From positions 32,355 through 96,354 of the forward strand of contig JAVKIP010000002.1 in NCBI GenBank assembly GCA_031459385.1: a stretch of 64,000 nt of DNA. The letters are read 5' to 3'. Source of the DNA: Candidatus Fervidifonticultor secundus. Lineage in GTDB: Bacteria; Sysuimicrobiota; Sysuimicrobiia; Sysuimicrobiales; Humicultoraceae. Shown here in pieces: positions 21,601 to 24,600 of this stretch (its first letter is position 1; each line of letters begins with the position of its first letter). The position numbers are program-made.

Positions 21601-24600
21601 CGTGCCCTCCGGGGCCGTGCGCGCGAAGCGGTGGCGCTCGCCGGGGCGGCGATACTGGTCGCGCACGGGTTTGCCGAGGCGCTGGTGTTGCGTCGCTGGG
21701 ACGCGTTCGCGCCAGCTGGGCGTCCCACCGCGCCGCCGGTGCTCCGGCAGGGTGGAGCCCCAAGCGGTGATCTGGTGGGACGGGGTGTGGTGGGGGCGCG
21801 TGGCGGCTTGCCTTGACGCTGGCAGATGGCGACCGATATAATTGCACGAGATTTCCGCCATATCGGCGACGAACGGGAGCAGTAGGCCGGAAGTCTGCCT
21901 GCGAGCGAGCCGGTGGAGGGTGCGAACCGGCGGCAGGCCCGGCTGAACTCGCCCGGGAGCCGCGGGCGCGAACGCGTCGCGGACGCGACGCCAAGCGTCC
22001 GCCGCCTGGCCCGCGAGACGGGTCTAGAGTGGATGGACGCACGGGGCAGTAGCTCAGCGGGAGAGCGCCCGCTTGGCGTGCGGGAGGTCGAGGGTTCAAT
22101 TCCCTCCTGCTCCACCAGCGTGATCGGCGCGTCCGTCAACCGGGGTGGTACCGCGGAGGCCGCCTTCGCCCTTGGGGAGGAGGCGGCGCGCCGTTTTTTG
22201 GGAGGAGAGCGGGATGCAGCCATCGAGTCGGGTCTGGTTTGACGGCAAGCTGGTGCCGTGGGACGAGGCCACGGTGCACGTCGCAGCCCACGTCATCCAG
22301 TACGGGTCCAGCGTCTTCGAGGGCATCCGCTGCTACGAGACGGCGAGCGGGCCCGCGATCTTCTGCCTGACCCCGCACCTGCGGCGCCTGGAGGACTCGT
22401 GCAAGATCTTCCGCATGGCGCTGCCCTACACGACCGAGGATCTCGCCCGGGCGATCCTCGAGACCGTGGGGGTCAACGGGCACCGGTCGTGCTACATCCG
22501 CCCGGTGGTGTTCCGGGGCGTGGAGTCGTGGAGCGTGGAGCCGCGCCGCTCGCCGCTGCACGTGGCCATCATCACCATCGAGTGGGGGCGCTATCTGGGG
22601 CCCGAGGCGATCGAGCAGGGCGTCGACGTCATGGTGAGCTCGTGGCGGCGCATGGCCCCCGATACGCACCCTGGCATGGGCAAGATCGGCGGGAACTACG
22701 TCAACTCGGCGTTTGTCGTCATGGAGGCGGTGGACAACGGGTACGCCGAGGGGATCGCCCTGGACGTGTACGGGTACGTCAGCGAGGGCAGCGGGGAGAA
22801 CGTGTTCGTGGTGCGCGACGGCGTGATCTACACGCCACCGCTGGCCGCCTCAATTCTCAGCGGCGTGACGCGTATGGTGGTCACGACGCTGTGCCGCGAC
22901 TTGGGCATCGAGGTGCGGGAGATCCCGATCCCCCGCGAGTTGCTCTACGTGGCCGACGAGGTCTTCTTCACCGGGACCGCCGCAGAGATCACCCCGGTGC
23001 GGTCGGTGGACAAGGTGCGCATCGGCGGCGGGACCCGCGGACCGGTCACGCGGCGGCTGCAGGAGGAGTTCTTCGGTATCGTCGAAGGCCGGATTCCCGA
23101 CCGGCACGGCTGGCTCACGGCCGTGCCCGTCCTGAGCCGGCCGTAGCGCGCCCGGGAGGCGTCCGGAACCCATGCGGTACGATCACCGGACCGTCGAGGC
23201 GAAGTGGCAGGCGCGGTGGGAGGCCGACCGGCTGTACCACGCGCCGGACTTCGACCCGCGGCCCAAGTTCTACTTCCTGACGATGTACCCGTATCCGTCG
23301 GGGGACGGGCTGCACATCGGCCACTGGTACGCCATGGCGCCCTCCGATGCGGCCGCGCGCTACAAGCGGATGCGGGGGTACAACGTGATGCTCCCCATGG
23401 GCTTCGACGCCTTCGGGCTGCCGGCGGAGAACGCCGCGATCAGCCGGGGCGTCCACCCGTACCGGTGGACGATGGACAACATCGCCCGGATGCGCCAGCA
23501 ACTGCGCTCCATGGGCGCGATGTGGGACTGGGACCGCGAGATCGTGACCTGCCAGCCCGAGTACTACCGGTGGAACCAGTGGTTCTTCCTGAAGATGTAC
23601 GAGCGCGGCCTGGCCTACCGCGCGCTGGCGCCGGTGGACTGGTGCCCGAAGGACAACACCACGCTGGCCCGCGAGCAGGTGGTGGGCGACGAGCGCGTCT
23701 GCGAGCGGTGCGGGACGCCGGTGGTCAAGAAGAACCTGGAGCAGTGGTTCCTGAAGATCACGGCGTACGCCGACGAGCTGCTCGACTTCTCGACGATCCA
23801 GTGGCCCGAACGCGTCGTCACGCTCCAGCGGAACTGGATCGGGCGCAGCGACGGGGTGGAGTTCGCCCTCGAGGTCCGCGGGCACCCCGGCGTGACGTTC
23901 CGGGTGTTCACCACCCGGCCCGACACCGTCTTCGGCATGACGTTCTGCGTGCTGGCGCCGGAGCACCCGCTGGTCGACCGCCTGGTGACCCCCGACCGGC
24001 GGGCGGTGGTGGACGCCTACAAGTTCAAGGCCGCGCGCGAGTCGGACATCGAGCGCCTGTCCACCGAGAAGGAGCGCGACGGGGTCTTCATCGGCGCCTA
24101 TGCCCTCAATCCCATGAACGGCGCCGCGGTGCCCATCTACATCGCGGACTACGTGCTGCTGACCTACGGCACCGGCGCCATCATGGGTGTGCCCGCGCAC
24201 GATGCCCGCGACTTCGACTTCGCCCGCAAGTACGGGCTACCCATTCCGGTGGTGGTGGCGCCGCCGGGGTGGGACGGGCAGCCGCTCGCCGCCGCGTACC
24301 TCGGCGAGGGGACGATGGTGAACTCGGGCGAGTTCGACGGCCTGCCCTCAACCGTGGCGTGGCAGCGCATCGCCGACGCCATGGTGGCCCGCGGCATCGG
24401 CGAGCGGAAGGTGCACTACCGCCTCCACGACTGGCTGATCAGCCGCCAGCGCTACTTCGGCACGCCGATCCCCATCGTCTACTGCGGCCACTGCGGTATC
24501 GTGCCGGTGCCGGAGGAGGACCTGCCGGTGGTGCTGCCCGAGGACGCGGAGTTCCGCCCGACCGGCGAGTCCCCCCTGAAGTACCACGACGGATTCCGGC

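Follow-up and report, generated by a model that had tools for sequence, protein, structure and literature searches.

How does the only tRNA-Ala(GGC) gene of a bacterium come to lie inside a riboswitch that senses another tRNA, and does the riboswitch depend on it? This question is raised by a locus of Candidatus Fervidifonticultor secundus (Sysuimicrobiota, family Humicultoraceae), which we analysed within a window of 64,000 nucleotides, the whole stretch of DNA under study; all positions below count from its first letter, and all the features described are on its + strand. We propose, with a probability of about 0.7, that one promoter gives rise to a single leader RNA that is both a Leu-sensing T-box riboswitch and the precursor of the only tRNA-Ala(GGC) of the genome.

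Upstream of the leader lies a gene for a PMT_2-family glycosyltransferase (20284..21816; ORF list, Pfam PF13231, E 5.7e-16), whose 3' end overlaps the -35 hexamer of a sigma-70-type promoter (21813..21842). The two hexamers, TTGACG and TATAAT, match the consensus at 11 of 12 positions and are those named in a preliminary description of the locus, but the spacer between them is of 18 nucleotides and not 17. The idea that this promoter is of tRNA grade is not supported: by consensus it is no stronger than the promoters of other T-boxes in the genome, since a score of 10 or 11 is also reached in 4 of the 8 other T-box leaders, and one of at least 10 in 16 of the 56 tRNA upstream regions.

The T-box model RF00230 is aligned by cmscan over its complete length (1-219) to positions 21860..22176 (49.7 bits, E 1.1e-9), which comprise Stem I, Stem II, Stem IIA/B, Stem III and the antiterminator, and a 92-nt insert is placed in the Stem III loop. 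In this alignment the specifier codon is CUC (Leu) at 21948..21950, in the context GAA-CUC-G (21945-21951), where a purine follows the codon; the matching tRNA-Leu(gag) is encoded in the genome, as found by ARAGORN. In published descriptions the T-box discriminator is given as RRRNG-Stem III-AA, and Stem III is counted as a part of this aminoacylation-sensing domain. The window leader has the whole motif, as judged from its sequence, from cmscan and from the co-variation described below: GAGUG and the Stem III 5' arm GAUGGACGC occupy 22027..22040, the arm itself (22032-22040) forms 9 pairs with GCGUCCGUC (22129-22137), and this 3' arm is followed by the conserved AA (22129..22139). The T-box sequence comes next at 22142..22155 in the cmscan alignment (helix A1 GGGG, bulge UGGUACC, then GCG) and reads GGGG-UGGUACC-GCGGA. 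The score of the leader is below the Rfam gathering score of 93 bits, as are those of all 11 T-box matches of this genome; we attribute it to the high G+C content and to the penalty for the insert, and not to a missing element.

Beyond the T-box sequence, RNAfold predicts a terminator-type hairpin (22159-22187) made from the 3' strands of the antiterminator, and six nucleotides (GCGCCG) separate it from a run of six U (22194-22199), the whole element spanning 22159..22199. The hairpin and the U6 of the terminator first described are both present, but they do not adjoin, and a terminator scan called none at the leader by its rule. An outer helix CGGCGC/GCGCCG that would abut the U6 was considered and discarded, as it is not conserved in a relative of the same genus. 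Several relatives have leaders with poor U-tracts; in the homologous leaders of other phyla, canonical terminators with hairpin and U-tract are found. Given the distance of the U6 from the hairpin, the empty scan and the U-tracts of the relatives, attenuation in the window leader may be weak or may rely on a different mechanism. Next come the ribosome-binding site GGGAGGAG and ilvE at 22200..23146 (ilvE from its start at 22214 to 23146; Pfam Aminotran_4, E 4e-48), and then leuS at 23172..25622 (Pfam tRNA-synt_1_2, tRNA-synt_1 and Anticodon_1).

Within the Stem III insert, at 22043..22117, lies a complete tRNA gene, which ARAGORN reads as tRNA-Ala(GGC) and which fits the cloverleaf model RF00005 with 68.8 bits by cmscan (E 1e-14, cut-off 29). 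It has G3:U70 and A73, which we take to be the identity set of AlaRS, and an encoded CCA. Between the CCA and Stem III is a linker (22118..22128) whose length varies from 0 to 106 nucleotides across leaders; a GC insertion variant is seen in it, behind position 22126, in 2 of 4 Logan DNA runs. ARAGORN finds 56 tRNAs on the 59 contigs of the assembly and only one Ala(ggc), the nested copy, and, in a crude set of 1205 ORFs, GCC ranks second among the codons in use, with 65 per 1000. A pattern built on the GGC anticodon and the T-arm gives a single match, at the nested site, in all of 5 other carrier genomes; in the phylum it is present in 84 of 94 genomes, once in 81 of them, with the proviso that it does not recognise tRNAs whose variable loop contains AGGTT (G007, G008 and genus g9) and gave one false match, a tRNA-Arg. 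Among 140 distinct nested leaders G3:U70 and A73 are found in all 140, the CCA is encoded in 116 and absent from the DNA in 24, and 88 have a U at position -1. These leaders contain 87 distinct tRNA sequences with compensatory changes in their stems, and the nested tRNA is under selection.

The pairing of Stem III around the tRNA is conserved in the same set. An unanchored search for the longest perfect helix spanning the tRNA gave spurious helices in many leaders and was replaced by a count of anchored 7-bp stems: seven of seven pairs are standard in 55 of the 140 leaders and six of seven in 37, and with swapped partners the proportions are 4.3% and 13.5%. Among these leaders 116 different Stem III helices occur. 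In an RNAalifold consensus of 37 sequences, chosen beforehand for their good pairing in Stem III (the anchored count over 140 being the unselected measure), Stem III encloses the full cloverleaf and 18 of 29 pairs are changed on both sides. The RRRNG and AA flanks are retained in nested leaders, and in 44 selected leaders the linker between Stem III and the 5' end of the tRNA is of 0-5 nucleotides. On the grounds of promoter, co-variation, identity elements and single copy, the core of the preliminary description holds: a complete and apparently functional Leu (CUC) T-box leader before ilvE, with the sole tRNA-Ala(GGC) gene of the genome, apparently functional too and serving the second most used codon, in its Stem III loop upstream of the attenuation point and closed by a co-varying helix.

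The arrangement had been described from Humicultoraceae genomes, but it is not confined to them. Of 34 genomes of this family 25 have the nesting, which also occurs in five further families of Sysuimicrobiota, and the cmscan T-box match spans the tRNA in 19 of the 24 family loci in which tRNA and T-box sequence stand side by side. A scan blind to the identity of the tRNA, over one genome per species, gave at least 120 places; a tRNA-Ala(GGC) lies just upstream of the T-box sequence in 116 of the 120 matches listed, and no other tRNA is found in any of these 120. The gene after the leader, examined for 113 of the matches listed, is leuS in 91 and ilvE in 13. The matches listed come from groups that include Chloroflexota and Bacillota, and some of them are in cultured strains; according to the record titles, Thermosyntropha lipolytica DSM 11003, Desulfotruncus alcoholivorax DSM 16058, Desulfofundulus thermosubterraneus DSM 16057, Desulfitispora alkaliphila DSM 22410 and Tengunoibacter tsumagoiensis Uno3 are carriers. 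Since the scan pattern allows a single gap and misses leaders with more than 52 nucleotides between T-loop and T-box sequence, all these counts are lower bounds. In 19 of 20 cross-phylum loci tested with cmscan the T-box match spans the tRNA, and 11 of the 20 score above the 93 bits of Rfam (93.7-130.9 bits) with the tRNA inside Stem III. Nesting spans several phyla, and it is ancestral to Sysuimicrobiota.

Within the phylum the two parts are also found in altered relations. Genus g9 has lost Stem I and Stem II and retains promoter, tRNA and T-box sequence; in the group of loci f5, an intact T-box sequence is lost in 5 of 7 loci and the tRNA is kept before ilvE. The genera g3 to g5 have plain T-boxes, with a tRNA-Ala(GGC) upstream in 4 of 6 loci, and a promoter of its own was read before this tRNA in all three of these loci whose upstream DNA was covered (L024, L025 and L029, the fourth being L023). 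The leaders of G013 and G015 belong here: they are plain T-boxes of 241 and 237 nucleotides, as first described, but a tRNA-Ala(GGC) lies upstream of them on the same strand with its own promoter. These genera are derived forms in which the tRNA is just upstream of the T-box. The deletion of Stem I and II, the loss of the T-box and the relocation of the tRNA with its own promoter show that the two parts can work separately.

From these data we infer that the tRNA is transcribed together with the leader, excised from it and carried by it as a passenger. The polymerase would make Stem I with the CUC specifier, Stem II and the 5' arm of Stem III, and then the entire tRNA, which would fold by itself; the 3' arm made next would close the helix around it. 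When the T-box sequence emerges, uncharged tRNA-Leu(GAG) would stabilise the antiterminator and permit read-through into ilvE-leuS, and charged tRNA-Leu would allow the terminator-type hairpin to form. Because the tRNA is upstream of the decision point, each initiation would yield one tRNA-Ala precursor, whatever the outcome of the switch. RNase P and the 3'-end processing enzymes would excise the tRNA, and the leader would be severed by the excision. Most likely the tRNA is a tolerated passenger in a variable loop. It probably entered a leuS leader once, long ago, and was then fixed there because it was the only copy; a single origin is suggested by the constancy of the tRNA among the matches listed, 116 of 120 with no other tRNA, and by the leuS gene that mostly follows.

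An alternative, which we consider unlikely, gives the nested tRNA a working role integrated into the switch, and it takes several forms. The tRNA could add about 75-95 nucleotides of transcription time between the capture of tRNA-Leu and the decision, or it could stack on Stem III as a folded scaffold; or RNase P, in excising it, could put the sensor out of action for good and determine both the 5' end and the stability of the ilvE-leuS mRNA. Across several phyla the nesting is kept with no change of tRNA, loop or leader, and Stem III is part of the aminoacylation-sensing discriminator; the short 5' linker would let the acceptor stem stack on Stem III, and the Stem III arms could join the halves of the leader after cutting. 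On the other hand, genera g3 to g5, with the tRNA out of the loop, still have an apparently intact T-box before ilvE-leuS, the tRNA is kept by lineages that lost Stem I and II or the T-box sequence, the range of the 3' linker does not fit a fixed geometry, and apart from the leaders with tRNA-Ala(GGC) no T-box among the 120 matches listed carries a tRNA. The long retention across several phyla could mean that the nesting itself was selected and not just tolerated. Joining these elements, one may tentatively see the tRNA as the built-in module of an ancient two-in-one RNA, a doubtful reading on the present evidence: the folded pre-tRNA-Ala would stack on Stem III and extend the window for reading tRNA-Leu during synthesis, RNase P would sever the sensor from the message afterwards, and tRNA processing would be the event that ends the life of the riboswitch and fixes where the leuS mRNA begins and how stable it is, in an arrangement retained from before the split of Bacillota, Chloroflexota and Sysuimicrobiota. 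If true, this would be a riboswitch with an output coupled to tRNA maturation.

The promoters support the reading that leader and tRNA are one transcript. The TTGACG/TATAAT pair at 21813-21842 is the only promoter-like site in 21500-22500 (mean of 0.0 in shuffled sequences), so that by consensus matches no site is found within the leader and no second promoter lies between its start and the tRNA. A TTGAC-N16-19-TAnAAT site occurs once in each of 22 complete nested Humicultoraceae loci, upstream of Stem I in 21 of them and immediately before the tRNA in the other (L015). It is very improbable, in our view, that the tRNA has a promoter of its own and that tRNA and T-box halves are separate transcripts, with Stem I and II as a relic. 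In g9, where Stem I and II are gone, a promoter does stand directly before the tRNA, but it matches the ordinary leader promoter with the interval deleted; the tRNA of g4 and g5 does have its own promoter, and in the window a TAGAGT lies 12 nucleotides upstream of the tRNA, but this hexamer has no -35 partner and is not conserved (CAGAGC, CGAGCG and CAAGCG in relatives). This reading also has against it that Stem III pairs and co-varies across the tRNA, that 76 of 113 cross-phylum leaders show a CUC specifier to a simple pattern (of the rest, 33 were unmatched and 4 had other triplets), and that the full T-box model exceeds the Rfam cut-off in the 11 leaders mentioned.

More improbable still is a role of the nested tRNA as a cis ligand or decoy, by pairing of its ACCA with the UGGU of the T-box bulge. 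With A73 invariant and CCA encoded in most leaders its end is complementary to the bulge, but tRNA-Leu likewise has an end that matches UGGU, which makes the complementarity uninformative. Its GGC anticodon is no match for the CUC specifier, and 24 of the 140 leaders have no encoded CCA. The idea is rejected on geometry: the ACCA is at the far end of a Stem III of 7-11 bp, with linkers down to 0-2 nucleotides, and once Stem III is formed it should not be able to reach the bulge. Finally, the probability of an assembly artefact or of a decayed tRNA pseudogene is negligible, for although the assembly is metagenome-derived and breaks within the tRNA are seen in Logan contigs, the contigs of 4 of 4 DNA runs (all of one study, one of them possibly the source of the assembled DNA) contain both the leader-tRNA and the tRNA-T-box junction, over 140 distinct leaders, some of them in closed genomes and in cultured strains, have the same order, and the tRNA, at 68.8 bits, has all its identity elements. 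A search for sequencing runs gave 14 runs of DNA and none of RNA.

The leader can be compared with several known systems. The Leu-specific leuS leader of Bacillus subtilis is a canonical transcriptional T-box leader (RF00230). The nested leaders share with such leaders the Stem I specifier loop, Stem II, Stem IIA/B, the RRRNG-Stem III-AA motif, the UGGN bulge, an antiterminator with a putative terminator that would compete with it, and, downstream, a gene for an aminoacyl-tRNA synthetase. They differ in the Stem III loop, which normally has a few bases in canonical leaders and here holds a complete tRNA gene of 72-76 nucleotides with its linkers; in Sysuimicrobiota, ilvE is also placed between leader and leuS. 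The thrS T-box leader of B. subtilis is reportedly cleaved in vivo upstream of its terminator, by which the read-through mRNA is stabilised. A cut T-box leader, with a possible effect on mRNA stability, would be common to both cases; there a general endonuclease acts on a single-stranded site, whereas here tRNA-processing enzymes would cut and release a functional tRNA. Transcription of tRNA genes together with a protein gene is known from the thrU-tyrU-glyT-thrT-tufB operon of Escherichia coli. tRNAs are also located in the spacers of rRNA operons (PMC10250234). In all these operons one promoter serves tRNA and other RNAs, and RNase P and 3'-end enzymes release the tRNA; rRNA operons share in addition a long-range helix around a stable RNA. 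Operon tRNAs, however, sit between genes, whereas this one is within the sensing structure of a riboswitch, upstream of the decision point.

Nesting of tRNAs inside a larger structured non-coding RNA is found in GOLLD RNA, in which tRNAs are embedded (PMC12990946). GOLLD is large, of unknown function and often in prophages, it is not a cis-regulatory leader, and its tRNA varies, whereas here it is always tRNA-Ala(GGC). Insertions in T-boxes have precedents as well: stem Sa of the staphylococcal glyS T-box is a lineage-specific insertion (PMC9177973), and a review notes 'curious insertions in every domain' (PMC7583486). Like the nested tRNA, insertions of the stem Sa type are extra structured elements in the discriminator domain that the switch tolerates; they are hairpins with no known product, whereas the insertion here is a stable-RNA gene with its own job in translation.

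No published account of a tRNA inside a T-box was found in a literature search that did not cover the classic comparative T-box surveys. Here a riboswitch carries a stable-RNA gene within its sensing structure: the RNA that recognises one tRNA is also the precursor of a second. One of the unexplained T-box insertions is in this way a real gene, and the nested tRNA gives a reason for the low Rfam scores of these leaders. The arrangement offers a natural experiment on the tolerance of the Stem III loop, and it raises a question of timing between the co-transcriptional decision of the riboswitch and processing by RNase P. Its presence in cultured strains makes it accessible to bench study, for which the variants of the phylum, with the sensor deleted, the T-box lost or the tRNA expelled, are ready-made controls. 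The spread of this leader across phyla is a possible marker of a very old gene order.

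The intergenic region 21817-22213, which lies between a PMT_2-family glycosyltransferase gene (20284-21816) and ilvE (22214-23146, Aminotran_4), itself followed by leuS (23172-25622), carries a Leu T-box leader with a tRNA-Ala(GGC) gene nested in its Stem III loop. In fact, cmscan recognizes a complete T-box (RF00230) at 21860-22176 (49.7 bits, E 1.1e-9, model 1-219) with a 92-nt insert in the Stem III loop; as the preliminary description had stated, this insert encloses the tRNA (68.8 bits), which ARAGORN places at 22043-22117 as tRNA-Ala(ggc). The specifier GAA-CUC-G is found at 21945-21951. 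The arms of Stem III, GAUGGACGC (22032-22040) and GCGUCCGUC (22129-22137), form nine pairs and are bordered by GAGUG and AA; this is the RRRNG-Stem III-AA motif, described in the available parts of the TBDB paper and of a 2020 review (PMC7583486) as part of the discriminator that senses aminoacylation. The 5' arm ends two bases (AC) before tRNA +1, and 11 bases lie between the encoded CCA and the 3' arm. Downstream of Stem III come the T-box sequence GGGG-UGGUACC-GCGGA (helix A1, bulge, helix A2) and a terminator-type hairpin (22159-22187) sharing the 3' strands of the antiterminator, then GCGCCG, a U6 run (22194-22199), GGGAGGAG and ATG. The hairpin and the U6 run reported previously as a terminator are both present, but GCGCCG sets them 6 nt apart and our scan of the window, by its rule, called no terminator at the leader.

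The tRNA is the only Ala(ggc) among the 56 tRNAs that ARAGORN finds in the 59-contig assembly, as had been claimed; the same set includes Ala(cgc), Ala(tgc) and Leu(gag). The statement that GCC is the second most used codon holds as well (65 per 1000, behind CTG, in a crude set of 1205 long ORFs). All 11 RF00230 matches of this genome fall under Rfam's cut-off of 93 bits (best 64.3), so every T-box of the organism would escape routine annotation.

The helix around the tRNA was evaluated in 140 distinct nested leaders as a 7-bp helix anchored after RRRNG and before AA. Standard pairs occupy 7/7 positions in 55 leaders, six in 37, five in 35 and four or fewer in 10, with no anchors in 3; when 3' partners are swapped among sequences, 7/7 is obtained in 4.3% and 6/7 in 13.5%. 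There are 116 distinct Stem III helices, and positions 2-7 show several Watson-Crick pair types. RNAalifold, applied to 37 sequences whose pre-selection for short linkers and good pairing biases the result towards structure, draws a 6-pair Stem III around a full cloverleaf, in which both partners have changed in 18 of 29 pairs, one Stem III pair being CG in 20 sequences and UA in 14. The window tRNA carries G3:U70, A73 and an encoded CCA; G3:U70 and A73 occur in 140/140 nested leaders (87 distinct tRNA sequences), and 116 of these leaders encode the CCA. The base at position -1 is most often U (88), then C (35), G (11) or A (6). The RCCA end is unpaired with the 5' leader, which matters because such pairing impedes RNase P, according to the available part of PMC9433436.

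Within Humicultoraceae (family f1, genera g1-g12, 34 genomes), the tRNA lies directly 5' of the T-box sequence in 24 of the 30 loci first fetched and in that of genome G018 (locus L047), giving 25 nested genomes in 9 of 12 genera (g1, g2, g6-g12). A T-box match spans the tRNA in L047 and in 19 of the 24; the others are L002 and L003 (Stem I match only), L015, and L021 and L030 (contig ends). Leaders stand directly before leuS, without ilvE, in G018, G030 and G031. Plain T-boxes, 220-250 nt long, occur in six loci (G009 of g3; G010, G011 and G013 of g4; G015 and G016 of g5), including the two, G013 and G015, already described as such; in four of these six the tRNA-Ala(GGC) lies 118-1023 nt upstream on the same strand, and in the three whose upstream DNA was read (L024, L025 and L029, but not L023) it has its own promoter, TTGAC(C/G)-17-TATAAT or TATACT. 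G012, G014 and G020 could not be placed and are left out of these counts, and the conclusions are independent of two unpublished genomes, G024 (L016, nested) and G016 (L024, un-nested). In G021 (g9) the interval from just past the promoter up to Stem III is absent, so that the promoter is followed, after about 17 nt, by a short Stem III, the tRNA, the T-box sequence, the hairpin and ilvE; for G022 (g9) the assembly covers no more than the 3' half of the tRNA, the 3' linker and the T-box sequence, the contig ending in the tRNA, and these match G021. In G032 (g12, L014) Stem I lacks its distal half, and two similar words of the GGCAGCGGCC type flank the gap; either the deletion is real and would prevent capture of tRNA-Leu, or this genome, which is 73% complete, was misassembled at that point.

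In the un-nested g4/g5 leaders L023, L025 and L029 (compared with L047) the long Stem III hairpin is topped by GCCGG...CCGG(U); in L029 the word is GGGCCGG, identical to bases 1-7 of the tRNA-Ala(GGC) of its lineage. These words could be the scar of an internal tRNA deletion that left the acceptor stem after a copy had been placed upstream, or could be due to chance in G+C-rich DNA.

Nesting had been described in other Humicultoraceae, which stands, but its scope is far wider. The tRNA is directly upstream of the ilvE orthologue in 17/17 loci fetched from four other families of Sysuimicrobiota (f2, f3, f5, f7), and a T-box match spans it in eight (L037, L039-L044, L046); L034 and L035 have a Stem I match plus a T-box sequence after the tRNA, and L038 is truncated by a contig start. 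In L050 (G034, f2) an insertion of about 280 nt, some 200 nt after the tRNA and before the T-box sequence, duplicates the tRNA 3' half (T-arm to CCA), which is what an element integrated at a tRNA 3' end would leave. Five of the seven f5 loci keep the tRNA without an intact T-box sequence or T-box match, and in L033, L036 and L045 a hairpin and U-run follow the tRNA. L032 (G090, f5) retains tRNA and hairpin with a bulge UGCAACC in place of UGGUACC, a change that would prevent the tRNA NCCA end from pairing; it looks like a leader caught in decay. G092 (f6) has a nested leader before leuS, and in four f4 loci the tRNA is located elsewhere with no T-box motif near. A GGC-anticodon/T-arm pattern matches in 84 of the 94 genomes of the phylum, once in 81. 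The 3' linkers of L039 and L042 reach about 97 and 106 nt, and in L038 and L039 (f3) short direct repeats (GTAGAC/GTCTAC-type) fill 150-250 nt from T-box terminator to ilvE start. By parsimony, nesting is ancestral to Sysuimicrobiota, and the plain T-boxes of g3-g5, the decayed f5 and g9 forms and the f4 state are derived.

Beyond the phylum, a scan blind to tRNA identity (tRNA T-loop, 22-52 nt, T-box sequence; one genome per species) returned at least 120 places; ARAGORN calls a tRNA at the T-loop match in at least 113, and in 113/113 this is tRNA-Ala(ggc); no other tRNA in a T-box is among the matches listed. The remaining listed matches are three tRNA-Ala(ggc) cut by contig ends, three chance matches outside T-boxes and one T-box with a chance Stem III motif. 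Among the 113 listed, the downstream gene is leuS in 91, ilvE in 13 and neither query in 9, and a simple pattern reads specifier CUC in 76, other triplets in 4 and none in 33. Record titles among the matches listed name Chloroflexota (many classes), Bacillota (Syntrophomonadaceae, Peptococcaceae, Thermoanaerobacteraceae and others), Coprothermobacterota and Sysuimicrobiota, including cultured strains; some of the titles (Armatimonadota, proteobacteria, Bacteroidales) look like depositor labels, and the sequence of one 'Armatimonadota' record matches a Humicultoraceae locus at every position of the compared stretch. A T-box match spans the tRNA in 19 of 20 representative loci, 11 of the 20 exceeding 93 bits (maximum 130.9, with an 87-nt Stem III loop insert). 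A strict pattern matched 52/401 and 20/151 genomes in samples of two phyla, where the reversed pattern gave 0 matches; ten further fetched matches were all tRNA-Ala(ggc), nine with leuS downstream, and in 5/5 carrier genomes the GGC-anticodon/T-arm pattern matched once, at the nested site. Four Chloroflexota loci (L077, L091, L094, L055) have a second tRNA on the same strand upstream of Stem I, 150-400 nt before the nested one, which in L077 and L091 is preceded by a promoter-like site and has an anticodon loop read as CGC (Ala); there the leader may be part of a tRNA-Ala operon.

Anatomy, conservation, co-variation, the single promoter and the single tRNA copy support the reading that one promoter would produce one RNA that is both riboswitch leader and tRNA-Ala precursor. 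tRNA-Leu(GAG) would read the CUC specifier and pair with the UGGU bulge as in any T-box, and RNase P and 3'-end enzymes would later free the tRNA, splitting the leader in two; we infer co-transcription, processing and this order of events. As the tRNA lies upstream of the decision point, each initiation would give a tRNA-Ala precursor, with or without read-through into ilvE-leuS. We favour a tRNA that is a passenger, having entered the variable Stem III loop once and then become fixed, because natural variants have separated the two functions (g3-g5, g9, f5), the 3' linker spans 0 to more than 100 nt, and no other T-box with a tRNA is among the matches listed. The main alternative, which the very long retention of nesting leaves plausible, is an integrated role: the tRNA would act as timer or scaffold, or its processing would inactivate the sensor and define the 5' end of the mRNA. 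We give this roughly one chance in five. An internal promoter for the tRNA, a possibility raised earlier, is unlikely: within 21500-22500 the single promoter-like site is TTGACG-18-TATAAT (21813-21842, 11/12 positions matching; shuffles average 0.0; spacer 18, not 17 as first given), and the 22 complete nested f1 loci have one TTGAC-N16-19-TAnAAT site each in the 420 nt before the T-box sequence, upstream of Stem I in 21 and immediately 5' of the tRNA in L015. A cis-ligand role of the nested tRNA-Ala, beside a Leu specifier, is also unlikely. So is an artefact; Logan contigs of 4/4 DNA runs, all from one study and one possibly the source of the window DNA, cross both boundaries of the tRNA, on the leader side over 21750-22072 and on the T-box side over 22078-22176 or beyond.

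Contigs of two of these runs have an extra GC in the linker between tRNA and Stem III 3' arm (22126), a strain variant in the one freely variable part of the leader. Other contigs sharing the tRNA, with loose ends at 22042 and 22049, run upstream into L041- and L034-type leaders, so other members of the phylum with nesting inhabit the same samples.

A full-text literature search, which did not cover two classic T-box surveys, retrieved no account of a T-box that contains a tRNA gene. The available parts of the TBDB paper and the 2020 review (PMC7583486) report that both the stem and the loop of Stem III vary and mention T-boxes with 'curious insertions in every domain', and in those parts a tRNA is not mentioned; among structured RNAs, the closest precedent for an embedded tRNA is GOLLD, as presented in the available part of PMC12990946. 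What is new is the ilvE-leuS form of this arrangement in Sysuimicrobiota, its polarity within the phylum and a natural set of variants.
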